From: Klebsiella phage vB_KpM_FBKp34
Sequence record: MW394390.1
Strand: one strand, 5' to 3'
DNA: 64,000 bases
Positions 40,289-62,119 of this stretch are shown here, piece after piece (the stretch's first letter is position 1; each line of letters starts with the position of its first letter). The notes beneath the pieces are model-generated. The model had not been told where the DNA came from, made no database searches, and worked only from the letters and a program-made list of their open reading frames with translations. A program made the translations under genes and the position numbers.

Positions 40289-41237
40289 GATTGTAATGGA
40301 AACCATCTTTGGTTCACATTTATATGGTCTGAATACCCCTAACAGTGATACAGATTACAAAGGAATTTTTATTCCTGATGCAAAAGATATTCTCTTAGGA
40401 AAAGCTCCTAAAACAATTCAATCATCTACAGGTGATAAACACTCAAAGAATACAAAAGATGACATTGATCGCTAAATGTTTAGTTTGAGTAAATTCATCA
40501 GTCTTGCTTGTGAAGGTGATACAGTAGCTATCGACATGATTCATGCTGATGATAGTAAGCTCGTAACCAATTCTGAAACGTGGCAATATATTCGTGACAA
40601 TCGTCACCGTTTTTATACTAAAAAGCTGACAGGACTTTTTGGTTATGTAAGGAAACAAGCATCTAAGTATGGAATTAAAGGCTCCAGGCTTGCAGCATTA
40701 CGTGAAGTTGTAGAATATATTAAGACAATAGATGATTCTAAAAAGGTTGGTGATTTCAAAGAATATTTTCCACTCAATGAGTTTGCATATTGGATCTTTG
40801 CTACGGATAAAAATGGTGTAAATCAAATCTTTTATGAAGTTCTTGGAAGAAAGTTTCAACAAACAGTCTCAGTAAAAGAAATGAAAACATCTTTATTTAA
40901 ACTGTGGGAAGAATATGGTGATAGAGCACGTTTGGCTGAGGCTAATCAAGGTGTGGATTGGAAAGCTCTGAGCCACGCTCTTCGTGGTGGATATCAACTT
41001 ATTAACATTTATAAGCATGGTGATCTTGTTTATCCTATGGAACAAAATCCCTTGATTTTATCTGTTAAGACTGGTAACATGCCTTTCAATGAGGTTCAGG
41101 AAGAACTTGAGAAGGTTGTACAGGAAGTTGAAATTTTAGCAGAAAACTCTCATTATCCTTCTTCAGTAGATAAGGAATTTTGGGAAGATTTTCTAGAAGA
41201 GGTTTATTCAGAACATATTCTTGGAGCATATTTGTGA
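40281..41237 (+). CDS. nucleotidyltransferase-like protein interrupted by an in-frame TAA (40473-40475)
   Basis: N-terminal ETIFGSHLYGLNTPNSDTDYKGIF (GS-x9-DxD minimal NTase motif) continues in the same frame after TAA into a 253-aa C-terminal part. Confidence 0.5.
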
Positions 41238-42090: not shown

Positions 42091-42753
42091 TTGAAACAAA
42101 AACTTGTACATAACTATGGCATTAATGATAGTGTAGACCCTGTCTCTATAAATAGATTTGAAGATGGTAAATGGAAGCAAATTTGGCTCTGTCCGATATA
42201 TAGCCGATGGAAAGACATTCTTAGAAGATGTTATAATTTAAAACAAAAAGATCCATATTATTTTGTCTATGAAGGTTGTACTGTAAGTGAAGAGTGGAAA
42301 TACTTTTCAAATTTTAAAGCTTGGGCCATATCTAAGGATTTTGATAATTTATGCATTGATAAGGATATATTAATTAAAGGTAATAAGCTTTATAGTAAAG
42401 AGACTTGCGTTATGGTTCCGAACTATATTAACTGCCTATTAACAGATAGTAGATCTGCAAGAGGACACCTCCCACTAGGGGTAAGTCTTAAAAAGAAGAA
42501 AAAGCCTCATCATAGGGATAGGTTCCAAGCTTATTGTCATGTATCTGGTAAGATTGTTTATCTAGGTTATCATAACTCACCAGACCTTGCTCATAAACAG
42601 TGGCAAGATTATAAAATTATTGCAATCAAGGAAAGCTTACAAAAATATAAAGAATCTGCACACTTTAATAAGGTTGTTGAAACTGCCTTACTTGATAGGA
42701 TCCAAGATATAAAAGAAGATATAAGTTTAAATAGAGAGACATTAAAATTATAG
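42091..42753 (+). CDS. putative homing endonuclease with AP2 DNA-binding domain
   Basis: GVSLKKKKKPHHRDRFQAYCHVSGKIVYLGYHNSPDLAHKQW = AP2-type domain. Confidence 0.5.
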   Translation: MKQKLVHNYGINDSVDPVSINRFEDGKWKQIWLCPIYSRWKDILRRCYNLKQKDPYYFVYEGCTVSEEWKYFSNFKAWAISKDFDNLCIDKDILIKGNKLYSKETCVMVPNYINCLLTDSRSARGHLPLGVSLKKKKKPHHRDRFQAYCHVSGKIVYLGYHNSPDLAHKQWQDYKIIAIKESLQKYKESAHFNKVVETALLDRIQDIKEDISLNRETLKL

Positions 42754-42761
42754 GGGGTAAT

Positions 42762-43277
42762 ATGTTGAAATATAAAGTGATGGATTTGTTATTGGCTGCA
42801 AAAAGTGGAGAAGTAAATGTTATTGCACAACAATGTAACTGTTTTAATGCACGTAAACGTGGGATTGCCCCACTTTTAGATAAAGCTTTCCCGGAAGTCG
42901 CTATTGCAGATGATTCAACTATTAAAGGAGACCCTAAAAAATTTGGAGATTTCTCATATGCCCATTCTCCATTGTATAATTTAAGTATTTATAATTTATA
43001 CGGACAGTGGGGTTGGTGGAAACGTGAGGATGGAAAACCAAATACAGATTTAGATAAGCTTGAATCTTCTTTCAAAGCTATGTCTAAACAGCTAATGCTT
43101 TTTGAAAATCAGGATCTTAAAATTGGACTTCCCAAACTTGGTGCAGGTCTTGGAGGAGCAGAGTGGTCTTCTGTTGAAGATATTATCAAAAAGACATTGT
43201 GTGAAGCCGGGTACAATGTTACCATCTATGTACTTGATGAAGCTGAAATCCCTGAAAATGCCACTGTGATCAAATAA
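42762..43277 (+). CDS. macro domain protein (ADP-ribose binding/hydrolase)
   Basis: VIAQQCNCFNARKRGIAPLL and GLPKLGAGLGGAEW motifs. Confidence 0.65.
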   Translation: MLKYKVMDLLLAAKSGEVNVIAQQCNCFNARKRGIAPLLDKAFPEVAIADDSTIKGDPKKFGDFSYAHSPLYNLSIYNLYGQWGWWKREDGKPNTDLDKLESSFKAMSKQLMLFENQDLKIGLPKLGAGLGGAEWSSVEDIIKKTLCEAGYNVTIYVLDEAEIPENATVIK

Positions 43278-43286
43278 GAGGTCTAT

Positions 43287-44216
43287 ATGAAGTTAGACGA
43301 ACAAGAACTCAAAAAACGTTTTGAATCTAAGAAAAAAGATGCCAGGAAGCGTGGTATTGATTTCAAATTAACCATTGAAGATATGAAAGCACTTTTCTTA
43401 CGTAATGAGGGTAAGTGTGATTATACTGGTGTTACCTTTGATGAGGATAAACATAAGATATCCATTGAACGTTTAGATGATAAACTCGGTTATGAACGAG
43501 GAAATGTTTGTTTAACTTCAGTAGCAGTAAATAGAATAAAAGATTATGCTCTTGACAAAACCGAAGTACAAGTAGTAAGGATCAATGAAACTTCTGAAGC
43601 AATTTTACGAGTAGTTCAAGAGAAAGTTACACCAGAGTATAAAAGGTTTTTATCTTATAAATACAACCATTTAATTAAATTTGAATCTAATGTTTATAAA
43701 AATTATTTTAAAGGTATTGACTATACAAATTTTTATGATAACTTGAATGGTGTCTTAACACAAAAAATTGAACTATCACGTAATGATCAAGGAGTCCTGA
43801 AGATGTCAGATAAACAGATTGCCCCAGATGTACGCATTGCCTCTTACTATTCTGATATGGCTAAACATGCCTCTGCGGAAAAGAAAGAGTTTACAGTTAG
43901 TTTTGCAGAGTTTAAAGCTAAGTTTTCAGGAACTAAGTGCAAATTAACAGGAGAGACAATTGAACTGTCTCAAAAAGTCTTTATCCTGTTAGACCAAACC
44001 CAGGGTTATACTAAAGATAACATAGTGCTTGTAGGTAAAGAGGTGGGTTCAAAGATGGTAGAAGCTAGTAAGCTCTTAGGAATGTCTATTCCAGAGATGG
44101 CTAAGAATCTTAATCCTTTTGTCAAGAACTATGTACCAAAAAAGAAACCTGTACCCAAAACCCCGCTTGTATCTTTAAGCTCTATTATGAAAAGTAAAAG
44201 TGGAGATAAGAAGTGA
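43287..44216 (+). CDS. protein with two tandem degenerate HNH-like (His-Me finger) repeats
   Basis: CDYTGVTF...IERLDDKLGYERGNVCLTSVAVNRIK and CKLTGETI...LDQTQGYTKDNIVLV. Confidence 0.45.
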   Translation: MKLDEQELKKRFESKKKDARKRGIDFKLTIEDMKALFLRNEGKCDYTGVTFDEDKHKISIERLDDKLGYERGNVCLTSVAVNRIKDYALDKTEVQVVRINETSEAILRVVQEKVTPEYKRFLSYKYNHLIKFESNVYKNYFKGIDYTNFYDNLNGVLTQKIELSRNDQGVLKMSDKQIAPDVRIASYYSDMAKHASAEKKEFTVSFAEFKAKFSGTKCKLTGETIELSQKVFILLDQTQGYTKDNIVLVGKEVGSKMVEASKLLGMSIPEMAKNLNPFVKNYVPKKKPVPKTPLVSLSSIMKSKSGDKK

Positions 44217-45223: not shown

Positions 45224-45661
45224 ATGAATCCACTGTTTGATAAAATTAATGATTGGTTTGAAGATCTTAAGGAATATGCTGAAAACTCTCCCAAAGAGTT
45301 TCTTAAAGATATGGAATATATTTTAGATTCTAGCTTCTTTGAAGAAGTTTATGAGAAACTTGATACTGTTCGAAGCTCTTTGGATGACCTCCGTGAAGAA
45401 GTTGAAGCTAAAGTAGCACCTGAGTTTCGTGTTGAAAAACTTCATAAGTTGATTAAGCTTGTTGAAATTACAGATTTGAAAGGGAAATATGTTCGAGATG
45501 GATTTGAAGAAGATCTTTTTCTGAACCACAAAGATAAGATCCGTCCTCCAGTCAATACCCACCAAGTTGGAGACGTATTCCAAATTGAAGAGGTCGAAGC
45601 ACTCCTCGGTTCAACTGTTCTTAATAAAGAAGCTGTGTTGAAACTTCTGGAAAAACTTTAA
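45224..45661 (+). CDS. hypothetical acidic protein
   Basis: 145-aa ORF. Confidence 0.45.
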   Translation: MNPLFDKINDWFEDLKEYAENSPKEFLKDMEYILDSSFFEEVYEKLDTVRSSLDDLREEVEAKVAPEFRVEKLHKLIKLVEITDLKGKYVRDGFEEDLFLNHKDKIRPPVNTHQVGDVFQIEEVEALLGSTVLNKEAVLKLLEKL

Positions 45662-45680
45662 GGGCGAAAGCCCTTTTATT
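45661..45680 (+). terminator. rho-independent terminator AGGGC-GAAA-GCCCT + TTTTATT
   Basis: seen. Confidence 0.6.
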
Positions 45681-45698
45681 CACTTAACAGGGGGTGAA

Positions 45699-46985
45699 AT
45701 GTCTGAGAGTAAAATGCTAATCATGTTTGATTCAAAGAATAATAACAATAAATTCTATGAAGCAACCTTAGATGACGTTGGAAATATTGCAGTTCGTTTT
45801 GGTCGGGTAGGTGGCGGGGTTCAAACTACCTCCTACTCTGGTGGTAAAAAGAAGTTTGACAGTCTTGTTGCATCTAAAATCAAGAAAGGTTATAAAGAAG
45901 CACAACTAGAAGCTGTCTCTGGTGAAACTGGGTTGACTCAAAAAGTTAACGTAGTAGACATTGCACTTAAGCAAATTGATTGTAAAGACGACACAAGTCG
46001 TAATCTTATTCAAGCAATTGCTAAAGCAAACATTCATAATATCACCAGTTCTACCAACATTAAATATGATGAAAAAGATGGTCTGTTTAAGTCTCCTTTA
46101 GGAGTTGTAAAGAAAGCTGCTGTGGAAGAAGCAATGATCCATCTTGGTAATATTGAATCCCTTTTGGATGAATATGAAAAGAGTGGTAAAGGTGAAGATG
46201 AGATCTTAACTTTAAATGATTCTTATTTTGTTCTTATTCCTAATAAAGTTGCAACTACACGTGATAAACGTCACTTGTTGTTTAGTCAGAAAAAGATTGA
46301 TGAACAACGTGAAATTTGTAAAGCACTTCTGGAAACCTTAGACCTTATTGAAGAACTTAAGAAGAATCAGGAAGATAAACCTAAAGAAGAAGTTGAAGTA
46401 GAAAAAATCTTTAATTTTGGTATCTCTCATGTTGAAGATTCTGCTACAATTGATCGTATTGTTAAGTACTACAATGAAAGTAAAAATGCCCAACACGGCG
46501 GTCGCATCATGGGTTCTAAGGTTAAAAATATCTATAAAATTAATCTTGGAAATCAACAAGCACCATTTGATAAAGCCATTACTAAGTATGGAAATGTTCA
46601 TGAACTGTGGCATGGAACACGTGTAGCTAATTTGTTATCTATTTTCTGTAAAGGTTTGATGATGCCTAAGCAATCACCAGGGCAGAAAGCTGGTGCAATG
46701 TTTGCAGACGGTATATATTTCGCTAACCAAAGTTCTAAGAGCATCAACTATTGTGACGGCGGGTACTGGACAGGCGGTTCTGGTAGTGGTAAGGTATACA
46801 TGTTCCTAGCTTCAGTGGCTGTCGGAAATGCTTATACACCTAGAGGTCCAACGAGTCAATTGCCTCCGAAAGGTTATCATTCATATTGGGCGAAGGCTGG
46901 TTACTCTGGAGTCAGAAATGATGAAATCATTGTTTTTGATCTGAGTCAGATTCGTTTAGATTACTTACTTGAAATTGAATATTAA
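45699..46985 (+). CDS. WGR domain + poly(ADP-ribose) polymerase catalytic domain protein
   Basis: N-terminal KFYEATLDD...FGRVGGGVQ...KIKKGY (WGR); C-terminal ELWHGTR, GIYFANQ, NDEIIVFDLSQIRLDYLLEI = PARP H-Y-E triad. Confidence 0.85.
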   Translation: MSESKMLIMFDSKNNNNKFYEATLDDVGNIAVRFGRVGGGVQTTSYSGGKKKFDSLVASKIKKGYKEAQLEAVSGETGLTQKVNVVDIALKQIDCKDDTSRNLIQAIAKANIHNITSSTNIKYDEKDGLFKSPLGVVKKAAVEEAMIHLGNIESLLDEYEKSGKGEDEILTLNDSYFVLIPNKVATTRDKRHLLFSQKKIDEQREICKALLETLDLIEELKKNQEDKPKEEVEVEKIFNFGISHVEDSATIDRIVKYYNESKNAQHGGRIMGSKVKNIYKINLGNQQAPFDKAITKYGNVHELWHGTRVANLLSIFCKGLMMPKQSPGQKAGAMFADGIYFANQSSKSINYCDGGYWTGGSGSGKVYMFLASVAVGNAYTPRGPTSQLPPKGYHSYWAKAGYSGVRNDEIIVFDLSQIRLDYLLEIEY

Positions 46986-47002: not shown

Positions 47003-47470
47003 ATGGGTAAAGCCATTAAAAGTATAGAGTTTGTTTTTGAAAACTGTGAATCCTTGGTGTTTAATTACCCAGATGTCTTTATGTTTAATATTTGGGGTGA
47101 AAAAGAATCTTACCACTCTTACTCTAATTGTATACTGCTTGAGAAAAGTATCTCAGGTTTTTATGCAGGCATTAATAAAGATGCAAAACCCACACATGAA
47201 AGTTGCTACTGGGGAAATGAAGGGCAAGAACCAAATTTATATCACTTATTACAATATAAGGATGTTACTCAGGTTCTTATTAATTTCGAAAATTCTGGCT
47301 CATGTTGTTACTTTGTTGAATGGCCCGAGGGGGATTCAACAAGCCATAGTGGGCAATCTTGGCAAAAAACAGAAGAAGGTCATATCTTCTATTTGAGTAC
47401 TATGAAAGATAGTCCTCAAGAGATTCCATCTATAGAAGACGTTGATAGTTTTGCATATATGGCACTTTAA
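47003..47470 (+). CDS. hypothetical protein
   Basis: 155-aa ORF. Confidence 0.45.
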   Translation: MGKAIKSIEFVFENCESLVFNYPDVFMFNIWGEKESYHSYSNCILLEKSISGFYAGINKDAKPTHESCYWGNEGQEPNLYHLLQYKDVTQVLINFENSGSCCYFVEWPEGDSTSHSGQSWQKTEEGHIFYLSTMKDSPQEIPSIEDVDSFAYMAL

Positions 47471-47937: not shown

Positions 47938-47965
47938 AAGCCAGTTAACGCTGGCTTCTTATTTT
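47938..47965 (+). terminator. rho-independent terminator AAGCCAG-TTAAC-GCTGGCTT + CTTATTTT
   Basis: immediately upstream of nrdD RBS. Confidence 0.55.
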
Positions 47966-47974
47966 GGAGGAATA

Positions 47975-50900
47975 ATGCACCACCCATACAAAATTATAAA
48001 ACGTGATGGACGCACTGAACAATTTGATGAACGTAAAGTTTACAATGCAGTATATCAAGCAGCACTAGCTAACTCTTCATTATCAATCACAGCAGAACAT
48101 GTTGCTGATCAAATCACAGAACACGTTATTAAAAATCTCAAAGAGAATAAGTCAGTCTCAAATGTTCAAAAAATGATTGAAGATTTCCTTATGTCTAATC
48201 CAAAGACATATGATATAGCCAGAACCTATATTGAGTACAGACATGATAGAGATAAAATTCGTGAAGGAAATGGGAAACTTTATAATGACATCTCTGGCTT
48301 CTTAGAACAAACAGCAGAAGAATTTACTCGTGAGAACGCTAATAAACCCAGCAATGTTGTAAACACGCACAGAGACCTCTTAGCAGGGATTTTAAGTAAG
48401 CATGTAGCATTAACTCAAATACTACCTAAAAACCTCTCAGAATGGCATACAAGCGGTTTTGGGCATATTCATGACCTAGATTATCTAATCAGTCCTCTTA
48501 CAAATTGTCTAGGAAGAGAAACAGCTTTTATCACAAAAGAAGGAACAAAAACGTTTTTCGATTTTAATAGTGGAGATGATGTCCTAGCCTTAACCCATAC
48601 AGGTACTTTTAAGAAGGCAAAAGTTTACAATTATGGGTACGGACTTTTAAATGAAATTACATTAAAACGTGGACGTCTAAGAAAAACAATACGTGCAACA
48701 GCTAATCACAGGTGGTTATTAGAGGATGGCACAGTCACTACTAACCTTAAGGTAGGTGATAAACTACTGAAAACTCCTACAACATATAATAGAGATTGGG
48801 CCACATTGAGCAACTCTGAAAAAAGAGCTTGGTGTTTTGGTTTTGGATATGCAGATGGTGTGAGTAGGATTACACAATGGGGTAATTTTTTTACTATACC
48901 CCTTATTGGTAAAAAACAGGATTATCAAGAATTATTTGAAGATGCTGGATTTAGAGTTACTAAAACAAAGTTGTACTCTGTAGTACATTTAGGTAAATTA
49001 GAAAAATTTTTACCTACAACATTAACCCATACAGAAAATGAGATTTTTTGTTTTGTTGATGGGCTTATAGCAGCAGACGGACATAAAAAATATAGACCTA
49101 AGCTAAATAAAAATATTCCAGCGTCGATTCAGATGACTGGAGAAGAAATAAATGACTTTATACAAACTTGGTTTGAACCTGCTGGGTATTATTTGGGGGC
49201 AACGTTAGATCTTTCCTGTCAAGAAACAAATTATGGTAAAAGAAACGGAAAAACTATAGAATATAAATTAAACCCAGAACAGAACCATATGGCATGGACT
49301 GTCACTGAAATTATCAACACAGGCAAAGAAGAGGAGGTGTGGTGTTTGGAGGTGGAAGAAGATGCAAGTTTTATTCTTTCTAATGGAGTAGTCACAGGTA
49401 ACTGTTGTCTTGTTAACTATCAAGATATGTTAGAAAATGGTTTCCATATTGGAAATGCTTTCATTGAAAAACCTAAATCAATTGGTGTTGCTACTACAGT
49501 GTTGACACAAATTATTCAGGCGGTGGCCTCTAGTCAATATGGTGGACAAACTTGCGCACATATTGATACAGGATTAAAACAGTATGTAGAGTCAACATAC
49601 TATAGGAATGAAGGTTTATTTAATCAATATAATATCTCAGAATATAAAGTAGATGCTTTTAGGAAAACAGAACAAGATGTCTATGATGCAATGCAAACCC
49701 TTATTTATCAGGTTAATACATTAATGAGTGTAAATGGTCAGTCTCCATTCATCACTATTAGTCTTGGTTTAGATACTTCAGAATTTGGTAGAATGATCAC
49801 TCGTAACTATCTAAAAATTCATAAAGAAGGTCTGGGTAAAGATAAAGTAACACCTGTGTTCCCGAAAGTGATTTTCTTTCTTGAAGAAGGTGTAAACATG
49901 CACCCTGATGATCCTAATTATGACCTGAAACAACTAGCAATGGAGTGTTGTGCAGAAAGAATTTATCCAGATTTTATTTCAGTTCCTAGAAATAAACTAG
50001 TTACAAAATCTTCAAAAGGTCATGTTACTAGCATGGGCTGTCGTAGCTTCCTTTCTTATTTTGCTACAGAACAAGGTGAGAAATATGATGGCAGATTTAA
50101 TCTTGGGGTAGTGTCTTTAAACCTACCGATGATTGCCAAGGATTGTACCACCAACGGAAAACTTTTTCTTGAAGAACTTTATAAGCATATGCAAACAGCA
50201 TATGAAGCACATATGCTGAGGATTAATCGCCTTAAGGGAACTAAAGCAAAACAAAATCCTGTGATGTTCGTTGAAGGAGCATTAGCTAGACTCGATCCTG
50301 AAGAAACTATTGACAAACTTTTTTACAAAGGTTATGCTTCAGCAAGTTTTGGTTATGTAGGGCTTTACGAATGTGTAAAAATCCTTTATCCAGAGGTAAC
50401 TTTAGACGAGTACAAGGATTTTGGACAAAAAATTCTTAAATTTATGTCTAATATGGCAGAAGATTATAAAAAGAAAACAGGTGTAGGTTTTGGTCTTTAT
50501 GGAACCCCAGCAGAATCACTTTGCTATAAGTTTGCTAATAAAATTAATGAGAAATTCCCAGGAACTATCGAGAAAGATTACTTGACCAACTCTTTCCATG
50601 TTCCAGTAGACCAAGAAGTAGACCCTTTTACTAAATGGAATGTTGAATCAGGGTTTGACTTTATCAGTTCAGGTGGTAATATAGGTTATGTTGAGACACC
50701 AAATCTGAAACACAACATGCAAGGACTGGAAGCATTAATCAACTATGGATATGAAAATATTCATTACTTTGGGATTAATCAACCTGTTGATAAATGTCTG
50801 AAGTGTGGCTTTCATGGAGAGTTTAAAGCAACAGCAGAAGGCTTTGAATGTCCTGATTGTGGCAATACTGAGGAAGGAACGATCAACGTGATTCGGAGAG

Positions 50901-50992
50901 TCTCAGGTTACTTATCTGCACCTAACAGCAGACCTTTTAATAAGGGTAAGATGCAGGAAGTTGTTCAACGTGTAAAACATACAAATTTATGA
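47975..50992 (+). CDS. nrdD: anaerobic ribonucleoside-triphosphate reductase, intein-containing
   Basis: ATP-cone-like N-term, HIHDLD, C-terminal CLKCG...CPDCG zinc ribbon and glycyl-radical RVSGYL; 1005 aa because of 299-aa insertion. Confidence 0.9.
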   Translation: MHHPYKIIKRDGRTEQFDERKVYNAVYQAALANSSLSITAEHVADQITEHVIKNLKENKSVSNVQKMIEDFLMSNPKTYDIARTYIEYRHDRDKIREGNGKLYNDISGFLEQTAEEFTRENANKPSNVVNTHRDLLAGILSKHVALTQILPKNLSEWHTSGFGHIHDLDYLISPLTNCLGRETAFITKEGTKTFFDFNSGDDVLALTHTGTFKKAKVYNYGYGLLNEITLKRGRLRKTIRATANHRWLLEDGTVTTNLKVGDKLLKTPTTYNRDWATLSNSEKRAWCFGFGYADGVSRITQWGNFFTIPLIGKKQDYQELFEDAGFRVTKTKLYSVVHLGKLEKFLPTTLTHTENEIFCFVDGLIAADGHKKYRPKLNKNIPASIQMTGEEINDFIQTWFEPAGYYLGATLDLSCQETNYGKRNGKTIEYKLNPEQNHMAWTVTEIINTGKEEEVWCLEVEEDASFILSNGVVTGNCCLVNYQDMLENGFHIGNAFIEKPKSIGVATTVLTQIIQAVASSQYGGQTCAHIDTGLKQYVESTYYRNEGLFNQYNISEYKVDAFRKTEQDVYDAMQTLIYQVNTLMSVNGQSPFITISLGLDTSEFGRMITRNYLKIHKEGLGKDKVTPVFPKVIFFLEEGVNMHPDDPNYDLKQLAMECCAERIYPDFISVPRNKLVTKSSKGHVTSMGCRSFLSYFATEQGEKYDGRFNLGVVSLNLPMIAKDCTTNGKLFLEELYKHMQTAYEAHMLRINRLKGTKAKQNPVMFVEGALARLDPEETIDKLFYKGYASASFGYVGLYECVKILYPEVTLDEYKDFGQKILKFMSNMAEDYKKKTGVGFGLYGTPAESLCYKFANKINEKFPGTIEKDYLTNSFHVPVDQEVDPFTKWNVESGFDFISSGGNIGYVETPNLKHNMQGLEALINYGYENIHYFGINQPVDKCLKCGFHGEFKATAEGFECPDCGNTEEGTINVIRRVSGYLSAPNSRPFNKGKMQEVVQRVKHTNL
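48506..49402 (+). mobile_element. intein with LAGLIDADG homing endonuclease domain inside nrdD
   Basis: starts CLGRETAFITKEG after extein ...PLTN, ends ...VVTGN followed by +1 Cys (NCCLVNY); internal GFGYADG and VDGLIAADG motifs. Confidence 0.75.
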
Positions 50993-53652: not shown

Positions 53653-54630
53653 GTGACACATCATTTTGGGTTCCCCCTTCTGGATATTGCAGTTCTTGTT
53701 GGAGTTCTTGCACTATCAATCCTTGTAGATTTCTTTGGACACAAGGAAAATAAAGAGATCGGTATTAAGTCTGCATTGGCTTGGTCTGCATTTTGGATCG
53801 CATTAGCATTTGCATACTATGGTTTTATTTGGGTAGAGTATGGCAAAGAATTTGCCTCTTTGTTTCTGAGTGGGTATGTGCTAGAAAAATCATTGTCTGT
53901 GGATAACTTGATGGTGTTCATGGCAATCTTCGCTAGCTTCGGGATCAAATCGACACACTTACAGCATAAGATTCTTCTTTGGGGTATTGCTGGTGCCATT
54001 GTATTTCGAGGTATCTTTGTGGCAGCAGGTACGGCAATCTTTAATTTACACTGGTTTTTCCAAGTGCTGTTCGGTCTGATTGTAGCATGGTCTGCACTGG
54101 CTATTATCAAAGGCGGCGATGATGAGGAAGATGAAGTTGATTACTCTAAACACTGGGCGACTCGTCTGGTTGGTAAGATTCTTCCTGTTCATCCGGCTCT
54201 AGATGGCGAGAAATTTATCACCATTAAGAATGGGATCAAGTATGCAACTCCGGCTTTGTTGTGTGTCTTTGTAGTGGAGTTTACTGATGTAATTTTCTCC
54301 TTTGACTCTGTCCCGGCTGTAATTGGTGTGACGCAAGAACCTCTGCTGGTTTACTCTGCAATGTTATTTGCAATTCTTGGTCTCCGTGCACTGTTCTTTG
54401 TACTGAGTGTAGCAGTTAAATACTTGGTTCATCTGGAAAAAGCCGTTGCTGTAGTTCTAGTGTTTGTAGGTGCTAAACTGATTTACCATCCTTTTGGTGA
54501 GACACTAAATGCAAAATGGTCTTTCCTGCCACATGATATCTCAGCAAACGTAAGTCTTTGTATTGTACTTGGAACGCTGGCCTTGGGTATTATTGCAAGT
54601 CTGGTTTTTCCTGAGAAAAAAGAAGCTTGA
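53653..54630 (+). CDS. TerC family integral membrane protein (GTG start)
   Basis: multi-TM, YVLEKSLSVDNLMVF signature, second repeat VVEFTDVIFSFDSVPAV. Confidence 0.75.
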   Translation: MTHHFGFPLLDIAVLVGVLALSILVDFFGHKENKEIGIKSALAWSAFWIALAFAYYGFIWVEYGKEFASLFLSGYVLEKSLSVDNLMVFMAIFASFGIKSTHLQHKILLWGIAGAIVFRGIFVAAGTAIFNLHWFFQVLFGLIVAWSALAIIKGGDDEEDEVDYSKHWATRLVGKILPVHPALDGEKFITIKNGIKYATPALLCVFVVEFTDVIFSFDSVPAVIGVTQEPLLVYSAMLFAILGLRALFFVLSVAVKYLVHLEKAVAVVLVFVGAKLIYHPFGETLNAKWSFLPHDISANVSLCIVLGTLALGIIASLVFPEKKEA

Positions 54631-54634
54631 GAAT

Positions 54635-54657
54635 AGCCCCGAAAGGGGCTTTAGTTT
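54635..54657 (+). terminator. rho-independent terminator AGCCCC-GAAA-GGGGCT + TTAGTTT
   Basis: seen. Confidence 0.6.
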
Positions 54658-54674
54658 AAAGAGGAAACTTTAAC

Positions 54675-55037
54675 ATGAATGATATTTTTGATGAAATGGA
54701 AGAATATGCTTGGGCTTTGGGTGATAATGTAAATGCAATGGCTTTACTCCAAGAAAGATACCCACAAACAAACATTCAGATCTTAGAAGTTTCCGATCTA
54801 ATTCTTCCTAAAGGTGTTGTAGCTTGTTGTGGTACGGGCGCAGGGGAAGTAACACCTGTAAAACGTTTAGAAATGGCTTTTGGCTCCAGTTTAAATGGTG
54901 AAATGGAAAATGCTACCTTTGTCCAATTCTGGACTTCACCAAATGCTAAATTATTTGACAACACAACTTGGGAACTTTTCTTCTGGGATCAGGTGAAGGA
55001 TCGAGAGGTACAGTTTGAAGTTCCTGTTGTAGAATAA
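54675..55037 (+). CDS. hypothetical protein
   Basis: 120-aa ORF. Confidence 0.45.
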   Translation: MNDIFDEMEEYAWALGDNVNAMALLQERYPQTNIQILEVSDLILPKGVVACCGTGAGEVTPVKRLEMAFGSSLNGEMENATFVQFWTSPNAKLFDNTTWELFFWDQVKDREVQFEVPVVE

Positions 55038-55146
55038 TGTTGACTTTTGCTAAGACAAGCTTTATAGTTTGTCTTGTTGAAAGAAACAAACCAGTAAGGA
55101 GTAAAAATGTTTGCTGAAGAAGATATTCATTCAGAGATAGAATGGC

Positions 55147-55353
55147 TTGAATTTATTACAGAAAATTGGGAAGGTTAAAATGTTTGATTTGACTTATCAG
55201 TTTGACCCTGAGAGAGTATGTCTATGCCCAATTTGTGATCAACCAATGTTTACTTACGAAGCAGTAACAACTATCGTAGTCGATGATTGTCAATGTATGG
55301 CACACAATTTTTGTGCAATCAATTTCGACGAGGAAGAAGACGATGAAGATTGA
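55147..55353 (+). CDS. Cys-rich small protein with acidic tail
   Basis: CLCPICDQ ... CQCMAHNFC ... EEEDDED. Confidence 0.4.
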   Translation: MNLLQKIGKVKMFDLTYQFDPERVCLCPICDQPMFTYEAVTTIVVDDCQCMAHNFCAINFDEEEDDED

Positions 55354-55528
55354 GATCATTCACTCAGCAGGAACACCTTTTGAGGAAGGTAAACAATATG
55401 ACTTGGTCTACGATAGATATCTTCGTACCTATATGATCCAAGAGTGGGAACATGGTGAGTTATTGGAAACGTGGCTCAATGATTTGATTCATGATGCAGT
55501 TGAGTTTAAAATTATTAAGGAGAGTTAA
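55343..55528 (+). CDS. hypothetical protein
   Basis: ATGA overlap with upstream stop. Confidence 0.4.
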   Translation: MKIEIIHSAGTPFEEGKQYDLVYDRYLRTYMIQEWEHGELLETWLNDLIHDAVEFKIIKES

Positions 55529-55732
55529 ATGCCCAACATGAGCTATTGCCAATTTAGAAATACAGAAGGTGATTTTCGTCAATGTCTTGATGCAATTGGC
55601 AACGCAGAGTCAATTGAAGATTTTTCACAAAGTGAGCAAAACTCTGCGGAAAATTTATATGAAATGGCGAAAGATTATGTCAATTGGTATGAACAATTAT
55701 TAGATCAAGAGGTTGAAGATGAAGATTGTTGA
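55529..55732 (+). CDS. hypothetical acidic protein
   Basis: 67-aa ORF. Confidence 0.45.
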   Translation: MPNMSYCQFRNTEGDFRQCLDAIGNAESIEDFSQSEQNSAENLYEMAKDYVNWYEQLLDQEVEDEDC

Positions 55733-55976
55733 ACAATATGTTTTTGAAGTTGGGGATGTCTTTACAGGTAAAGGTGATGGTTGTTGGTTAGTGCCAAATC
55801 AACGAAGACTCCTTTCAGCACCAGATCACTATCTTTTTGTAAAAGAAGTTGGGATCAATGCAGTTTATCTTTGTGGTGTAGGGTATGCTTATAATTTTTC
55901 ACCAGAAGAGTTGACAGACCATATTAAAAAAGATAATCTCATTTATCTTGGTAATGTTTACAAAGGTAAAAACTAA
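55713..55976 (+). CDS. hypothetical protein
   Basis: 87-aa ORF. Confidence 0.45.
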   Translation: MKMKIVEQYVFEVGDVFTGKGDGCWLVPNQRRLLSAPDHYLFVKEVGINAVYLCGVGYAYNFSPEELTDHIKKDNLIYLGNVYKGKN

Positions 55977-56308
55977 TGAAAATTTTAATTATCTATGAAA
56001 ATATTCCAGAAACAACAGATCTTTTTGTTCTTGAAACTTCTGATTCTGAAGAGATCAAAAATCTGAGCGTCATTCATGGACACTATATTAATGCAGAAGA
56101 GAATGAAAAAATTCTTGACAATTGTACACGGTGGTACTATAAGCTATACGGTGAGACTACTTGGGCTGACAAGGAAGAGTATAGTAAATATGGTGTGCAG
56201 GATAGTGAAGTAGGAAAATATCTTAAAAATAAGATTGACTATCAAGATATCTTAGATGTAAAATCTTTAGATATTGATTATGTAGTTGTAACAGGATTTA
56301 TTTGTTAA
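55976..56308 (+). CDS. hypothetical protein
   Basis: 110-aa ORF. Confidence 0.45.
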   Translation: MKILIIYENIPETTDLFVLETSDSEEIKNLSVIHGHYINAEENEKILDNCTRWYYKLYGETTWADKEEYSKYGVQDSEVGKYLKNKIDYQDILDVKSLDIDYVVVTGFIC

Positions 56309-56328
56309 TTTAGAGGAGAAACACTAAT

Positions 56329-57042
56329 ATGAGTAATAAACTATCACTTGAGAAACGTACTGAGACTGTAAAACTGTCCCTGGAAAAAGCTGGTGTTCAA
56401 CGCAAGGATATTTGTCTCCGTGTAGCGCTTGCACTGGATAAAAGTGGATCAGCAGAAGATTTCTATCGTAATGGTCAATTTGAAGAGTTGGTTGATCGAC
56501 TCCTACCAGTCTCTGCAAATATGGATGATGACGGTACTATTGACACTTGGCTATTCCATACTCGCTCAATGGAGGTTGAACCTGCAACACCTAAAAACTA
56601 TGGCGGATACATCTCTAACGTCATCATGAAGGGTAAATATAAAAACGAGTGGGGTGGTACTAATTATGCTCCAGTGATGAAAGACATTCATCATCATTAC
56701 TTTGGAAAAGAAGAGAAGAAAGGTCTGTTTGGTTTTGGTAAAGCCAAAACTGTCCCTGTAACAGATTCAGATATTCCCGCACTTGTTTTCTTTATTACCG
56801 ATGGTTCTAATAGTGATCGGGTTGAGACTTTGCGACTACTTGACAGTATCAAAGATGAGCCTGTATATTGGATGACAGTAGGTGTTGGTCCAGATAGCTA
56901 CTTCACTTTCCTTCGTGAGATTGCTGAACGTTATGATAATGTAGGATTTGTTAATTTTAACAATCTAAATATTAGTGATGAGCAAATGTATAATGCAATC
57001 ATTGATGGTGAACTTGCAGCATGGATTAATAAGGTCTCCTAA
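56329..57042 (+). CDS. vWA domain protein (TerY-like)
   Basis: MIDAS-like LALDKSGS; FFITDGSNSD; agaggag RBS. Confidence 0.6.
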   Translation: MSNKLSLEKRTETVKLSLEKAGVQRKDICLRVALALDKSGSAEDFYRNGQFEELVDRLLPVSANMDDDGTIDTWLFHTRSMEVEPATPKNYGGYISNVIMKGKYKNEWGGTNYAPVMKDIHHHYFGKEEKKGLFGFGKAKTVPVTDSDIPALVFFITDGSNSDRVETLRLLDSIKDEPVYWMTVGVGPDSYFTFLREIAERYDNVGFVNFNNLNISDEQMYNAIIDGELAAWINKVS

Positions 57043-57109
57043 AAGAGTTGACTTTAAATTTTACTTTGAATATAATATTTAAACTGAATAACTAAGAGAG
57101 GAAATAAAT

Positions 57110-57691
57110 ATGTCACTTAATCTGGAAAAAGGTTCTTCATTGCCAATGGTTAAAGAAGATGGCAAAACTCCACTAAAACGAGTTCGTGTAGAGTTATCCT
57201 GGAATCCTAATACCAATTCATCTTCACATGATTTTGATCTGGATGTTCTTGGCGCAGTCTGTAAGAATGAAAATCTGCAAGCTGTATCAGTTAGTGAAGT
57301 TGCATACTGGGGGCAAAAACAGACTAAAGCAATTAACGTCTCCCCTGATAATCAAACTGGTATTGGTGATGGTGTTGATGAGTTCCTGGATATTAATCTT
57401 GAAAATGTGTCTTCAGACGGAGATCGTATTCCAGTTTTGGTTTATATCTACAATGCACGACCACGAAATCAGAGTTTTGCTCAGGTAGATGGTGCTAGTG
57501 TTGTTCTTCGTGACCTTGACTCAGGTAAAACTATTGGTTCTTGTAATATCTCTGAGAAAGGTTCTTCTATAGATGAGTCGCTTCTTGTTGGTGTATTTGA
57601 GAAACAAGCAGATGGAACTTTTATTTACAACCAAGTGAATGAGTTTTATGATAAGAGTTTTCAAGAATGGGTAGGTGTTTTTACTAACTAA
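57110..57691 (+). CDS. TerD domain protein
   Basis: LEKGSSL...VRVELSWNP...HDFDLDVLG...PDNQTGIGDGVDE...QSFAQVDGASVVLRD matches TerD core. Confidence 0.85.
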   Translation: MSLNLEKGSSLPMVKEDGKTPLKRVRVELSWNPNTNSSSHDFDLDVLGAVCKNENLQAVSVSEVAYWGQKQTKAINVSPDNQTGIGDGVDEFLDINLENVSSDGDRIPVLVYIYNARPRNQSFAQVDGASVVLRDLDSGKTIGSCNISEKGSSIDESLLVGVFEKQADGTFIYNQVNEFYDKSFQEWVGVFTN

Positions 57692-57752
57692 TTAGTTAAA
57701 GGCACTATTGGAGATAGTGCCACTTTTAATCTCGAAAACAGGAGAAAATATT

Positions 57753-58334
57753 ATGGTTTTAAGTCTGGATAAAGGTTCTAAGCTGTCACTAGATAAATTT
57801 CAAGCATCTGATCTGAAAGTATTGCGTGTTGAAATGACTTGGGACGCACCAGAGAAAACGAGTTCTTTCTTTAAGAGCTATGATTATGATCTTGATGTAA
57901 TTGCAGTTATTGTAGACAAAGATAATAAGGCTGTGGATGGCTCTAAACACTTTTGTTTCTTCAACCAACAGGAAACTCCAGCAATCAAAAGTTCTGGAGA
58001 TGATTTAAATGGGGAGGATGGCGGTGAATCTCTCCTGATTACCCTGGATAAAGTTCCTGAAAAAGGTAAACATATTCCAATTATTGTTGACCTTCATAAG
58101 GCTAAGGAACGTAAACAGAACCTTTCTCAAATGAAAGATGGTACGGTTCGTATTCTTAATCATGAAACAGACGAACTTCTTGCAGAAATTAAGATGAATA
58201 CTTTCTCAAGTAATGATACATCTATCTTGTTTGTGGTTGTTAATCGCACGGATACGGGTTTTGAAGTAGAGAACGTTAGTACAGCATACCCTAAGAGTAT
58301 TGTTGACTGGATTGAACTTTACCAAGTACAATAA
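57753..58334 (+). CDS. TerD domain protein (second paralog)
   Basis: MVLSLDKGSKLSL...VEMTWDA...YDYDLDVIA...; aggag RBS; track ORF starts 45 nt earlier. Confidence 0.8.
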   Translation: MVLSLDKGSKLSLDKFQASDLKVLRVEMTWDAPEKTSSFFKSYDYDLDVIAVIVDKDNKAVDGSKHFCFFNQQETPAIKSSGDDLNGEDGGESLLITLDKVPEKGKHIPIIVDLHKAKERKQNLSQMKDGTVRILNHETDELLAEIKMNTFSSNDTSILFVVVNRTDTGFEVENVSTAYPKSIVDWIELYQVQ

Positions 58335-58351
58335 GATCATTTTAAACTGTT

Positions 58352-58377
58352 AGGTGGGCCGATGCCCACCTTTTATT
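58352..58377 (+). terminator. rho-independent terminator GGTGGGC-CGAT-GCCCACC + TTTTATT
   Basis: seen; track ORF 58354 begins inside this hairpin. Confidence 0.6.
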
Positions 58378-58392
58378 AGGAAGGAGATTAAA

Positions 58393-59271
58393 ATGAGTGC
58401 AGACTATAAAAACCTTTTCAATAAACAAAAAGATTATTCTAATCTGTTCTCTGACAGTCAAAAACAAACTAAACAGGAATCAAACATGTCATATAAAAAT
58501 ATATTTGGCAATTCGGTATCTGTTCCCGAAGTTACTAAAATAAAATCAGTTTTCCCTGAAAAACAAATTGATGCACGAGTAAAAGATATTCAAACTATAG
58601 ATGCTAAAATTAGTACCCATGCTGTGATAAGCTGGATAGATAATTTTGATAATAACTTCAAGAAACTCACTACCATCAACCAGGAAGTTTCTCAATGTGA
58701 GTTAGATTTAGCAATGGAATTTACTAGTGGCAGACTTCAAGTACAAACCCTCTTCAATGATATAAAACAGGCTGTTTCCAAGTTAAAGGGACCGCAAAAG
58801 AAGCCTGGGCTACTATCACGTATTTTAGGTTCTAATGAGGAGTTTAAGTTAACTCAGGAAATTATTACCGAAGTTATCCAAGAGATTAAATTAAACTTGG
58901 AACAATTTAAGAACAAGGCCAAATATAACACTAGCATGTTTTTAAAATCAGAAATGAGGGCTATAGAAGCTAAAATTTTGGATTTAAAAAGTGACCTGGA
59001 GTGTGCTATTGTTGCTGCAACTTACATGATAAATAGTGATGATTTTAAGGGAACTGTTAGATTAGAGAAATTAAAACAAGTAAGTGGTTTAACAAATATT
59101 TCAGAATTGCAATTAAAAAATACTTACCAACTTCTTGAGAAAGATCTTGAAGCATACGAGAACTTAAAAAACATGACAATTCCATTTTTGTATGCTAAGA
59201 TCCAAACCTTAATGAGTAGCACTTTAGATTCTGAAGCGCTTAACGTGATTAATGATATTGATAAACTTTGA
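58393..59271 (+). CDS. TelA/KlaA-like toxic-anion-resistance family protein (paralog 1)
   Basis: MSADYKNLFNKQ N-terminus paralogous to next gene; long helical/coiled-coil body; assignment inferred. Confidence 0.4.
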   Translation: MSADYKNLFNKQKDYSNLFSDSQKQTKQESNMSYKNIFGNSVSVPEVTKIKSVFPEKQIDARVKDIQTIDAKISTHAVISWIDNFDNNFKKLTTINQEVSQCELDLAMEFTSGRLQVQTLFNDIKQAVSKLKGPQKKPGLLSRILGSNEEFKLTQEIITEVIQEIKLNLEQFKNKAKYNTSMFLKSEMRAIEAKILDLKSDLECAIVAATYMINSDDFKGTVRLEKLKQVSGLTNISELQLKNTYQLLEKDLEAYENLKNMTIPFLYAKIQTLMSSTLDSEALNVINDIDKL

Positions 59272-59281
59272 GGATTAAATT

Positions 59282-60358
59282 ATGTCATATGGTAATCTAT
59301 TCAATAAAACACAAGCTGCTGAAAATGTTGCAAACAAAAACTCTACAACATTTACTCAACCTGTAAAATCTTTACCTATTTTAAAAGATGCAGAAGGCAA
59401 TACTTATGCAATGGAATTGAGTGAAATTCAAAATTTTGGTATTGTTAAAAATTCAAAACAATCTGAAATTAATAATCAAATCTTATCTAAAACTCTTGTT
59501 GCAGATAGTGGTGTAATGGCACAAGGCTTTACTCAAATTATGGCTCTATCTGAAAAAGTAGATATTGGTTCTTTAACTGATGGCAAAGTTGGTTTCTTAA
59601 AAAGTTTACGTAATAAGTTTATTGATCGTAAAGCTGAAGTGAAAGCTCAATTTACTACTGTGCGTAAACAAATTACAGATGTCGCAGCTAACCTTAAGAC
59701 GAAACTTATTGAAATGGAAGAAGAAGGTAAGTGGTTAGAATCTATGTATAAGGCAAACCTTGAAGAAGTTCGTATGTGGGAGCAAAATAAAATTCTTGTT
59801 AATGATGCACTTGAACAAGCTGAGAGTTACCTACAAAACTTAATTAATACAGATGCCTCCGTAGATCAAATCGAAGAAACTCGAATGAAAGTTAATGCAC
59901 TAAGTAAACAAGCAGATAAAGTAAATAAAATGCACCAACTGAGTGCTATTGCTGCACCAGAGATACGTATGATGCAAGTTACCAACTTCAATAATGTGAA
60001 TAAGTTCAATGATATTCTTGAGTTAACAATCCCATACTGGGAAAAGAAAATGTCCCTGGCATTAAACGCAGAAAATCAGCGACAACAAATTGCTCAAGCA
60101 AAAGTTATGGATGATTTTACTAACAACTTAATTCAAGAAACCGCTAAACAGGTAGGACAAAATATGGTAGATTCGGCTAAAGCAAATCAAAGAGGGATTG
60201 CTGATGTAGATATTATGGTAGAAGCTACTAATGTCATTATCAATTCTATAAAAGAAGTTGTAGAGATTGATAAGAATGGTAATAATGTACGTAAAGAAAA
60301 TGCCAAAAAGATTGAAAAATCTTTGGTAGATATGCAGGATGCATTACGTAGTGTATAA
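59282..60358 (+). CDS. TelA/KlaA-like toxic-anion-resistance family protein (paralog 2)
   Basis: MSYGNLFNK...; helical 358-aa protein with the size and composition typical of TelA; inferred. Confidence 0.45.
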   Translation: MSYGNLFNKTQAAENVANKNSTTFTQPVKSLPILKDAEGNTYAMELSEIQNFGIVKNSKQSEINNQILSKTLVADSGVMAQGFTQIMALSEKVDIGSLTDGKVGFLKSLRNKFIDRKAEVKAQFTTVRKQITDVAANLKTKLIEMEEEGKWLESMYKANLEEVRMWEQNKILVNDALEQAESYLQNLINTDASVDQIEETRMKVNALSKQADKVNKMHQLSAIAAPEIRMMQVTNFNNVNKFNDILELTIPYWEKKMSLALNAENQRQQIAQAKVMDDFTNNLIQETAKQVGQNMVDSAKANQRGIADVDIMVEATNVIINSIKEVVEIDKNGNNVRKENAKKIEKSLVDMQDALRSV

Positions 60359-60374
60359 AATTTTATGTTGACTA

Positions 60375-60406
60375 AAAGGGGCTAATTGCCCCTTTACTAT
60401 TTTTAA
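60375..60406 (+). terminator. rho-independent terminator AAAGGGGC-TAAT-GCCCCTTT + T-run
   Basis: seen. Confidence 0.6.
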
Positions 60407-60422
60407 AATATAAGGAGGACTT

Positions 60423-60932
60423 TTGCTAAAGAAACTGCCAATGATTTTGTTGACAGCGATACTAGCGCTTCAGAACGCTGCTGCGAGCACTTCAAGTAAA
60501 GATAAGCCATTACATACCTGTACTAAGAAAGATTCAACCACGCTCGTTTTGGCGTGCTCTATGTATGCTGAGGCACGTGGAGACGGTGAAAAAGGTATGT
60601 TGATGGTAGGTAATGTAATTTTAAACAGGAAAAATCATGAAGATTACCCCTCTAAAATCAAAAAAGTAGTTTATCAGAAGAATCAATTTTCATACTTAAC
60701 AGGAAGTCCTGTAAGAATTTATGAAAAAGACACCTGGAATAAAGCTAAAAACTTAGCTAAATTTTTGATTTTATTAGAGAATGAAGATCCTTCTCTGAGG
60801 GTATTGCACGACCGAACTAAAGGTGCTATCTTTTATGTCAAGAGAGGTACAAGAGTAGCTTGGTTAAAATCAATGAAAAAGGTTGCAAGCTATAAAGACC
60901 ATGATTTCTATGTTCCAAAATCAGATACATAA
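60423..60932 (+). CDS. SleB-family cell wall hydrolase with signal peptide (TTG start)
   Basis: signal peptide; ACSMYAEARGDG...VGNVILNR...PSKIKKVVYQKNQFS. Confidence 0.65.
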   Translation: MLKKLPMILLTAILALQNAAASTSSKDKPLHTCTKKDSTTLVLACSMYAEARGDGEKGMLMVGNVILNRKNHEDYPSKIKKVVYQKNQFSYLTGSPVRIYEKDTWNKAKNLAKFLILLENEDPSLRVLHDRTKGAIFYVKRGTRVAWLKSMKKVASYKDHDFYVPKSDT

Positions 60933-60944
60933 TGGAGATTAAAA

Positions 60945-61196
60945 ATGGCTGGTTATCACATTAAAGAAATTGAAAAACGTCGTTATGGATCATTAGGTAA
61001 GATTCAGGAGGAAGTAGAAGAACTTCTAGATGCACATCAACAAGGTAGCTACATTATGATGTTGGTAGAACTCTCTGATTTATACGGTGCTATTGAAGGT
61101 TTCATGGAAGAAAACTTTCCTGACATGAAGATTGCAGATCTTAAAAAGTTCTCAGATATCACAAAACGTGCGTTTAAAGAAGGTCATCGATCATGA
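60945..61196 (+). CDS. MazG/HisE-like all-alpha nucleotide pyrophosphohydrolase
   Basis: EEVEELLDA...LVELSDLYGAIEGF two-helix EExxE / E..D pattern; weak. Confidence 0.35.
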   Translation: MAGYHIKEIEKRRYGSLGKIQEEVEELLDAHQQGSYIMMLVELSDLYGAIEGFMEENFPDMKIADLKKFSDITKRAFKEGHRS

Positions 61197-61783: not shown

Positions 61784-61814
61784 TTAGCTCATCAAAACAT
61801 GAGAGGGCTTATTA

Positions 61815-62117: not shown

Positions 62118-62119
62118 TA

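Follow-up and report, generated by a model that had tools for sequence, protein, structure and literature searches.

A predicted WGR-type PARP in a Klebsiella phage, its upstream neighbour U and its kinship with fungal Pyl1

Introduction

Poly(ADP-ribose) polymerases (PARPs) have a central place in eukaryotic DNA repair and serve as drug targets. Here we analyse a gene for such a protein in Klebsiella phage vB_KpM_FBKp34 (sequence record MW394390.1), of which a stretch of 64,000 nucleotides (the window hereafter) was taken as a whole; the gene, called PARP below, occupies positions 45699-46985 of its + strand. PARPs of phages and bacteria have already been catalogued (2005, 2014, 2021, 2022). 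The 2014 survey listed phage and other viral homologues, those of Aeromonas phage Aeh1 and Cellulophaga phage phi4:1 among them. PARPs of jumbo phages, XacN1 BBA65562.1 included, were noted in 2021, and in 2022 PARTs were found to be among the most frequent viral ADP-ribosyltransferases (ARTs) of the H-Y-[EDQ] kind. On the bacterial side, the WGR-helical-PARP proteins HaPARP of Herpetosiphon aurantiacus, which is DNA-dependent, and CdPARP of Clostridioides difficile are active in vitro. In the yeast Yarrowia lipolytica, Pyl1 (2025) auto-PARylates, PARylates Ku70/80 and makes genuine poly(ADP-ribose), and it is active in vitro without added DNA. The phage PARP itself belongs to a known kind; what is new here is its kinship with Pyl1 and, as the most novel element, its linkage to an orphan gene, U, that lies directly upstream. 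From sequence and modelling we give a probability of about 0.7 that the open reading frame (ORF) encodes a catalytically competent ART of the PARP1-3 type, consisting of a minimal module of WGR, helical domain (HD) and ART.

The protein shares with human PARP2 and PARP1 the order of the three domains, a near full-length profile match and equivalents of the His-Tyr-Glu (H-Y-E) triad and of K903, S904 and Y907. It differs from them in being only about 20-24% identical, in having no zinc fingers, BRCT domain or N-terminal region, and in a minimal WGR domain of about 70 amino acids that is without the PARP2 insertion and has Phe for Trp; HPF1, PARG and other partners of the pathway were also not seen among the window ORFs scanned. 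Going by their published descriptions, HaPARP and CdPARP have likewise at most three domains (WGR, helical, PARP) and H-Y-E, but their bacteria also encode PARG, of which none was seen among the window ORFs scanned, and none of the PARPs from the bacterial genomes sampled exceeds 41% identity to the phage protein. The catalogued phage PARPs (Xanthomonas XacN1 BBA65562.1 and Xoo-sp13, Stenotrophomonas CM1/RAS14; PHROG 23333) are WGR-PARPs too. These are mostly from jumbo phages and 33-35% identical to the present protein, and many distant loci have a downstream gene of a family that we call c2/c5 instead of an upstream U.

Results and discussion

Domains and catalytic residues of the phage PARP

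The preliminary description of this DNA, made from its letters, had placed the protein at 45699-46985, and these coordinates are exact; the gene lies on the + strand, has an ATG start, encodes 428 amino acids plus a stop and is preceded by a strong Shine-Dalgarno sequence, GGGGGTGA, at 45690-45697. Pfam domain calls were judged against the curated cut-offs, which all three domains exceed, namely WGR at residues 6-69 (45714-45905, 30.9 bits against a cut-off of 22), the PARP_reg helical domain at residues 102-227 (46002-46379, 34.4 bits against 26.8) and the ADP-ribosyltransferase catalytic domain at residues 249-399 (87.7 bits against 26.7, E = 9.7e-25), all on the + strand. The catalytic domain extends past its Pfam match to the C-terminus (46443-46982 as a whole) and includes the strand with the catalytic Glu, a second stretch aligned to PARP1 being residues 407-427. 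A check against PARP and WGR profiles had been recommended in the preliminary description; both profiles are found, and PARP_reg, which was absent from that description, is found as well. Also PHROG 23333 ('polymerase') matches the protein over its full length (1.6e-57). NCBIfam and PADLOC gave nothing useful for PARP or five neighbours, the PADLOC result for PARP being a single marginal match of 13.7 bits to a WGR-containing model, with no match to DarT or another ART model.

As single sequences, residues 1-145 and 1-268 had zero matches in the PDB by phmmer, and the N-terminal half was resolved later with a family profile, in whose alignment NNNK[FY]Y and [YWF]GRVG are in register with the WGR domain of PARP2. 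This domain had been called a textbook WGR. As a WGR it stands, with a Pfam score above the cut-off, but it is not a textbook one, as the eponymous Trp is replaced by Phe (F34-G35-R36). The family consensus at this position is Tyr (YGRVG), and N17, K18, G35, R36 and Y65 are the residues of the domain that are invariant across the family. The PARP_reg region sits between WGR and the catalytic domain, aligns to the helical domain of PARP1/2 and is a helical bundle in the AlphaFold2 model, where it covers about residues 85-235 (helices 85-92, 98-117, 139-162, 166-179 and 197-225). The model has a predicted local distance difference test score (pLDDT) of 86.7 and a predicted template modelling score (pTM) of 0.78, and its best Foldseek matches are the WGR-HD-catalytic (WGR-HD-CAT) chains of PARP1 on a DNA double-strand break (E = 2e-26, TM score at most 0.69), together with PARP2. 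A profile of 98 family members aligns with full-length PARP2 at 4.9e-45 and with PARP1 WGR-HD-CAT at 1.1e-43. A minimal 428-amino-acid enzyme of WGR, HD and ART could serve the study of allosteric activation without the accessory domains of PARP1.

All three motifs quoted in the preliminary description are present in the protein: ELWHGT (residues 302-307), GIYFA (338-342) and NDEIIVFDLSQIRLDYLLEI (407-426). Human PARP1 (helical plus catalytic domains) was matched at 2e-20 by phmmer against the PDB, and the phage and human motifs pair as ELWHGT/LLWHGS, GIYFA/GIYFA, SKSINYC/SKSANYC and NDEIIVFD/YNEYIVYD. By alignment, H305-G306-T307 (+ strand codons 46611-46619) correspond to H862-G863-S864 of PARP1 with the NAD-binding His, Y340 (46716-46718, +) to Y896, and K347, S348 and Y351 (within 46737-46751, +) to K903, S904 and Y907, while E409 (46923-46925, +), which lies in the motif N407-D408-E409, corresponds to the catalytic Glu E988. 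In 121 homologues H305, G306, Y340, K347, S348, Y351 and E409 are at least 95% conserved. Of these, H305 and G306 are invariant in the family, and E409 is present in 119 of the 121 aligned members, the remaining two being gapped there; T307 is at least 90% conserved. The claim of an intact H-Y-E triad is upheld, with H305/Y340/E409 aligned on H862/Y896/E988. A Glu and His placed otherwise than in PARPs had been named as grounds for giving the claim up, and they were found neither in the alignment nor in the PARP fold returned by AlphaFold2 and Foldseek, the placement being read from residue alignments and global fold matches and not from three-dimensional distances. The protein has three traits of the PARP1-3 class, namely an ART fold with H-Y-E and the signature block (LWHG...G.YFA...SKS.NYC), an adjoining helical domain and a WGR domain before that. 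It does not fall among the R-S-E (Arg-Ser-Glu) or Alt/VIP2-type ARTs, since its matches in Pfam and PHROGs are to the PARP family only and its triad is H-Y-E.

The interpretation given in the preliminary description is supported in part. It had also taken H-Y-E as predicting poly- rather than mono-ADP-ribosylation. This rule is unsafe, because PARP4, deposited in the PDB under the name 'Protein mono-ADP-ribosyltransferase', also aligns through the C-terminal Glu region (it matches query residues 160-425). PARP3 likewise has H-Y-E, yet it is mono-ADP-ribosylating. The pre-Glu loop, counted from the PKGYHS strand to the catalytic Glu, has 11 residues in the phage PARP versus 37 in PARP1, or about 26 fewer, and the length of 11 is found in 113 of the 121 family members.

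Kinship with fungal Pyl1

Among 5.8 billion proteins the closest named ones are fungal. For Yarrowia the identity is 59%, measured over the 61% of the query left uninterrupted by an insertion; it is 50% for Smittium and 43-47% for Coemansia, Dipsacomyces, Hesseltinella and Trichomonascus. The best match in 185,579 bacterial and archaeal species genomes was 41% (most were 36% or less) and the best match in IMG/VR 46%; relatives at 50-98% identity sit on phage-type contigs. When compared by region, two Yarrowia Pyl1 orthologues resemble the phage PARP most in the catalytic domain (63-65% identity), less in the helical region (52-54%) and least in WGR (48-49%), and they share with it the 11-residue pre-Glu loop and the motif GV(M/R)NDEIIVFD. 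Yarrowia Pyl1 is also alike in having an N-terminal WGR and a PARP catalytic domain with H-Y-E. It is unlike the phage protein in its own low-complexity, coiled-coil insertion of about 170-200 amino acids in mid-protein, its authors having detected no regulatory domain, and in being a nuclear eukaryotic protein that targets Ku70/80, for which Klebsiella has no known equivalent. Because the Pyl1 orthologues share the catalytic identity of 63-65%, the short loop and the motif, this kinship offers, by analogy, the best available argument that the phage PARP can make polymer.

A neighbour-joining tree was calculated for 87 sequences with 100 bootstraps and with HD and CAT of human PARP1 as the root; it is a distance tree with one outgroup, and canonical fungal PARPs were left out of it. 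In this tree the fungal Pyl1-type sequences (proteins P0031, P0032, P0038, P0041, P0042, P0044-P0048, P0050 and P0052) are monophyletic with a bootstrap of 99 and join the clade of Klebsiella phages and allied uncultured sequences with a bootstrap of 98. The group of fungal and phage sequences lies in turn inside larger clades that contain bacterial and IMG/VR sequences (bootstraps 96 and then 100). By Kimura distance the fungal proteins are 0.65-0.8 away from the phage clade, against 1.7-2.0 from human PARP1. Since the fungal clade is nested inside a radiation of phage and bacterial sequences, the tree suggests horizontal transfer of Pyl1-type PARPs into fungi. The kinship thereby suggests a phage or bacterial origin for the only known PARP of ascomycetous yeasts, which would change the reading of Pyl1 biology; the words 'horizontal' and 'phage' are absent from the 2025 Pyl1 paper.

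Distribution and selection

The window and its relatives KP13-16 and 05F01 are Klebsiella phages of the Stephanstirmvirinae. PARP is 91.7% identical to its counterpart in KP13-16 at the DNA level and 80% identical to that of 05F01 at the protein level, and the phage context assumed at the outset was right (92% DNA identity to Klebsiella phage KP13-16). Homologues of PARP are detectable by tblastn in 8 of 50,697 phage records, at a threshold that leaves out more distant phage PARPs such as those of Aeh1 and phi4:1. The other positive records are Xanthomonas and Stenotrophomonas jumbo phages, where the gene is annotated as poly(ADP-ribose) polymerase. Carried by few sequenced relatives, PARP would be an accessory gene. 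The ratio of non-synonymous to synonymous substitution rates (dN/dS) is 0.14 in the comparison with one orthologue and 0.07 with the other, at dS values of up to about 2.4, and the GC content of the gene (0.361) is close to that of the window (0.356). These values place the gene under purifying selection and mark it as a functional accessory gene that is being maintained, rather than a recent insertion in decay. Being carried by a Klebsiella myovirus of about 140 kb with culturable kin (KP13-16 and 05F01), this PARP is more tractable than the jumbo-phage or metagenomic versions. A separate observation concerns a 7,869-bp contig labelled 'MAG: Actinobacteria bacterium' (a metagenome-assembled genome; proteins P0009 and P0130), which has a PARP fragment 98% identical and a U 90% identical to those of the window. 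This contig is almost certainly a mis-binned phage contig.

The upstream gene U and the hairpin between U and PARP

U (145 amino acids, 45224-45661, + strand) lies directly upstream of PARP and is a candidate dedicated partner. It had no match in Pfam, PHROGs, NCBIfam or PADLOC. In a profile search, U homologues were found 0-2 genes upstream of PARP in 10 of the 12 phage-clade loci fetched via PARP, and on the contigs fetched via U, PARP follows U in both cases (2 of 2). The flanking genes of some U-PARP loci are otherwise unrelated. Of the 50,697 phage records, just those of KP13-16 and 05F01, the two with this PARP, contain U. The U family forms 23 clusters in 5.8e9 proteins, many of them on contigs equal in bp to PARP-bearing contigs, and U is absent from 160 more distant PARP loci. 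Seen at the level of gene order, this linkage argues for a functional partnership of U and PARP. The U homologues, given by locus number, are at 4864-5490 in L001, 5526-5963 in L002, 7369-7929 in L163, 6926-7471 in L164, 5684-5962 in L165, 4341-4961 in L168, 4672-4959 in L169, 4222-4812 in L170, 4576-4986 in L171, 5001-5534 in L172 and 3869-4156 in L173.

The core of U is a C-terminal domain of about 90 amino acids with invariant G87 and R107-P108-P109 (G...IRPP), preceded by a helical part that is variable and is missing from versions of 92-95 amino acids. In the AlphaFold model of U (pLDDT 91.3) a hairpin of helices at the N-terminus is accompanied by a small alpha/beta domain. A viral entry in BFVD/UniProt, A0A7U0GB15, is 100% identical to U. 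UniProt therefore already holds a phage all but identical to the source of the window, although the closest entry of the phage genome collection reaches only about 95% identity.

From the sequence and a terminator scan, a hairpin with a GC-rich stem and tetraloop, AAGGGC-GAAA-GCCCTT, followed by a T-rich tract, is located between U and PARP (45660-45677, + strand). An equivalent hairpin with a different stem sequence in each case is present in 8 of 9 U-PARP spacers (window, L002, L163, L165, L168, L169, L170 and L173). It is possible that this hairpin is an attenuator or terminator that sets relative expression.

Neighbours of more distant PARPs

ORFs were clustered across 160 bacterial and viral PARP loci. 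In 52 of the 160, a gene of the c2/c5 family (about 210-230 amino acids) lies directly downstream of PARP on the same strand, in bacterial (Armatimonadota, Kofleriaceae and others) as well as viral loci; examples are L093 (3587-4279), L094 (9296-9922), L160, L065 and L067. The clusters c2 and c5 are related to each other (hhalign probability 96.7%) and have an N-terminal F[ST]A[YH]D[VI]T..LR motif, with no Pfam match and a non-significant AbrB-like hint at the C-terminus. A macrodomain is present in 15 of the 160 loci. Also recurrent in the loci of relatives are NAD-dependent ligase, ATP-dependent ligase, Rnl1-type RNA ligase and topoisomerase II subunits. A nicotinamidase (cluster c13), whose profile matches yeast Pnc1 at E = 2.5e-12, is found 3-7 kb from PARP in 10 loci (L005, L027, L030, L044, L094, L124, L131, L138, L142 and L146). 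In the phage-clade locus L166 (3077-7305) a set of NUDIX, AAA_28 and NMN_transporter-family genes stands directly upstream of PARP; we take the AAA_28 protein to be NadR-like and the NMN_transporter family to be PnuC. These ligase, topoisomerase II and NAD-economy neighbours would fit a nucleic-acid-end context and real NAD turnover. The c2/c5, ligase and nicotinamidase genes do not occur in the window, where the macrodomain is the sole recurrent neighbour present.

Proposed role and alternative explanations

In the reading that we prefer, the phage PARP would use host NAD+ during infection to put ADP-ribose, most likely as chains, on itself and on proteins near DNA. Its activity would be gated by the helical domain and by binding of WGR to DNA ends or nicks, by analogy with PARP1/2 and the Herpetosiphon PARP. 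The enzyme is probably made inside the cell rather than injected, because its gene belongs to a block for nucleotide metabolism (nucleotidyltransferase, YqeY, NrdD/NrdG) and is not part of a virion module. U would be its most likely functional partner, whether it regulates or inhibits the enzyme or lends it specificity; the hairpin conserved between both genes probably sets the ratio at which they are expressed, and the common macrodomain protein of the phage could remove the modification. In our view the biological purpose would most likely be host takeover or a control over how DNA ends or nicks are processed. Should U regulate or retarget PARP, it would represent a novel type of PARP co-factor. 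A wider proposal has two parts. The first is that U and PARP make up an undescribed two-gene phage ADP-ribosylation cassette, in which U is a dedicated accessory (an antitoxin-like brake or inhibitor, or an HPF1-like specificity factor) and the hairpin sets the U:PARP ratio; the second is that this phage clade or its close prokaryotic kin was the source, by horizontal transfer, of the Pyl1-type PARPs in yeasts and early-diverging fungi. We offer the two parts jointly as a tentative proposal, with the odds against both being right together.

Several points weigh against the preferred reading. Poly- versus mono-ADP-ribosylation is not readable from H-Y-E, and the pre-Glu loop is about 26 residues shorter than in PARP1. 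The DNA dependence of the phage PARP, and with it the sensing of DNA breaks suggested in the preliminary description, is uncertain, since relatives disagree: the Herpetosiphon PARP needs DNA and Pyl1 does not need added DNA. The eponymous Trp of WGR is replaced by Phe. In the literature searched, no study that treats a phage PARP by biochemistry or genetics was found. For U, the proposed role is drawn from linkage alone: its model found no fold match, two of the 12 phage-clade loci are without it, and part of the linkage may be due to common descent, many of the contigs being related phages. The macrodomain is frequent in phages that have no PARP, so that a dedicated writer-eraser pair is unsupported, and PARG was found neither among the roughly 35 window ORFs scanned nor in the first 50 kb of the sparse 05F01 annotation. 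The expression class is an argument from gene neighbourhood, and a sigma-70 promoter scan was uninformative (15 sites versus 24.6 in shuffled sequence).

The alternatives are not mutually exclusive with this explanation. The one that holds up best likens PARP to T4 Alt, ModA and ModB: it would be a host-takeover enzyme that modifies host proteins, for example RNA polymerase or translation factors, whether or not DNA is broken, and so redirects the cell. Such a role has been proposed for phage PARTs in comparative surveys, the activity of Pyl1 without added DNA is in line with it, and so is the position of the PARP gene among non-structural genes. The T4 enzymes are alike in role, being phage enzymes that spend host NAD+ on the modification of macromolecules, but they belong to the R-S-E, cholera-toxin-like ART clade, are mono-transferases without WGR or helical domain and show no sequence match to the phage PARP. 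Moreover WGR and a putatively autoinhibitory helical domain are kept here under strong constraint, which is unexpected in a constitutive modifier, and there is no similarity to R-S-E ARTs. We consider this explanation unlikely, though with an appreciable chance.

A doubtful, but not negligible, alternative is that the enzyme is a mono-ADP-ribosyltransferase like PARP3 or PARP4, which might act on terminal phosphates at DNA breaks and so cap phage or host ends against ligation and exonucleases. The shortened pre-Glu loop, fixed in length across the family, speaks for the first part, as does PARP4, which aligns through the C-terminus and is deposited as a mono-ADP-ribosyltransferase; Pyl1 has the same short loop and GV(M/R)NDEIIVFD motif, however, and is reported to make poly(ADP-ribose). 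For the second part, WGR and the ligase neighbours that recur in relatives point to DNA or RNA ends as possible substrates. PARP1-3 are able to ADP-ribosylate DNA ends in vitro, which also counts for an action on ends.

It is very improbable that PARP serves as an NAD+ sink that drains the host pool and so disables LigA or NAD-based defence signalling. Activated PARPs do consume NAD+ fast, and the NAD-salvage genes in the loci of some relatives suggest that the cost in NAD is meaningful. Among the scanned ORFs of the window, though, no NAD-salvage gene was found, the conserved regulatory domains argue for controlled activity and not for bulk hydrolysis, and NAD+ depletion, as in abortive-infection systems, normally harms phage replication. 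A non-functional or selfish passenger, carried along with surrounding mobile elements (two HNH endonuclease genes and the NrdD intein make the region rich in mobile genes, and few sequenced relatives have PARP), is disfavoured to the point of having hardly any chance, given a dN/dS of 0.07-0.14 at dS up to about 2.4, catalytic residues that are all conserved across the clade down to 50% identity, and an intact ORF with a strong ribosome-binding site.

Genomic context in the window

PARP lies within a + strand block of non-structural genes, and no virion or NAD-salvage genes were found among the window ORFs scanned. Upstream, the block contains a nucleotidyltransferase (40476-41237), two HNH-endonuclease-type genes (42091-42753, PHROG 953, and 43287-44216, PHROG 3118) and, between them and 2.4 kb upstream of PARP, a macrodomain protein of 171 amino acids (42762-43277, + strand, PHROG 335); three small ORFs come before PARP in the block. 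Downstream there are a 155-amino-acid ORF (47003-47470), then YqeY and a terminator-like hairpin (47938-47957), then NrdD with an intein-like insertion (47975-50992) and NrdG. A tRNA scan found none.

The macrodomain protein matches BT1257 (2.9e-7), SCO6735 (8.4e-5) and, weakly, TARG1 in the PDB. Its Pfam Macro score is 15.1 bits, below the cut-off, and that of the 05F01 orthologue is 22.7 bits, above it. Judged by these similarities, it could be able to erase or read ADP-ribose. Homologues are present in 827 phage records versus 8 for PARP, usually annotated as 'phosphatase', and the gene was rejected as a PARP-specific eraser on this count.

Two other neighbours were considered as partners of PARP and rejected. 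The ORF at 42091-42753 matches HNH-endonuclease PHROGs (1.3e-72), shows no relation to c2/c5 (hhalign probability 0.1) and is thus a mobile gene. Paralogue-like copies of it stand directly downstream of PARP in KP13-16 and L163. The 155-amino-acid ORF at 47003-47470 occurs in PARP-less Aeromonas and RaK2-like phages. The position downstream of PARP is filled by different genes in KP13-16 and 05F01; KP13-16 has there a second copy of the HNH gene, 33% identical, where the window has the unrelated 155-amino-acid ORF, and this indicates mobile-gene turnover around PARP.

NrdD of the window has 1005 amino acids versus 704-715 in 05F01 and KP13-16. The extra segment of about 290 amino acids (residues ~216-475) has a sub-threshold match to Pfam Intein_splicing and is probably an intein, with a homing endonuclease within it, that is absent from KP13-16 and 05F01. 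Further downstream there is a Ter-type stress-response cluster (53653-63869), with a vWA-TerF-like gene (56329-57042), two TerD genes (57110-58334), TelA (59282-60358) and a ComF-like phosphoribosyltransferase gene (63045-63869). Also part of this cluster is a 325-amino-acid ORF at 53653-54630, which probably corresponds to the gene annotated in KP13-16 and 05F01 as encoding an Alx / DUF475 membrane protein.

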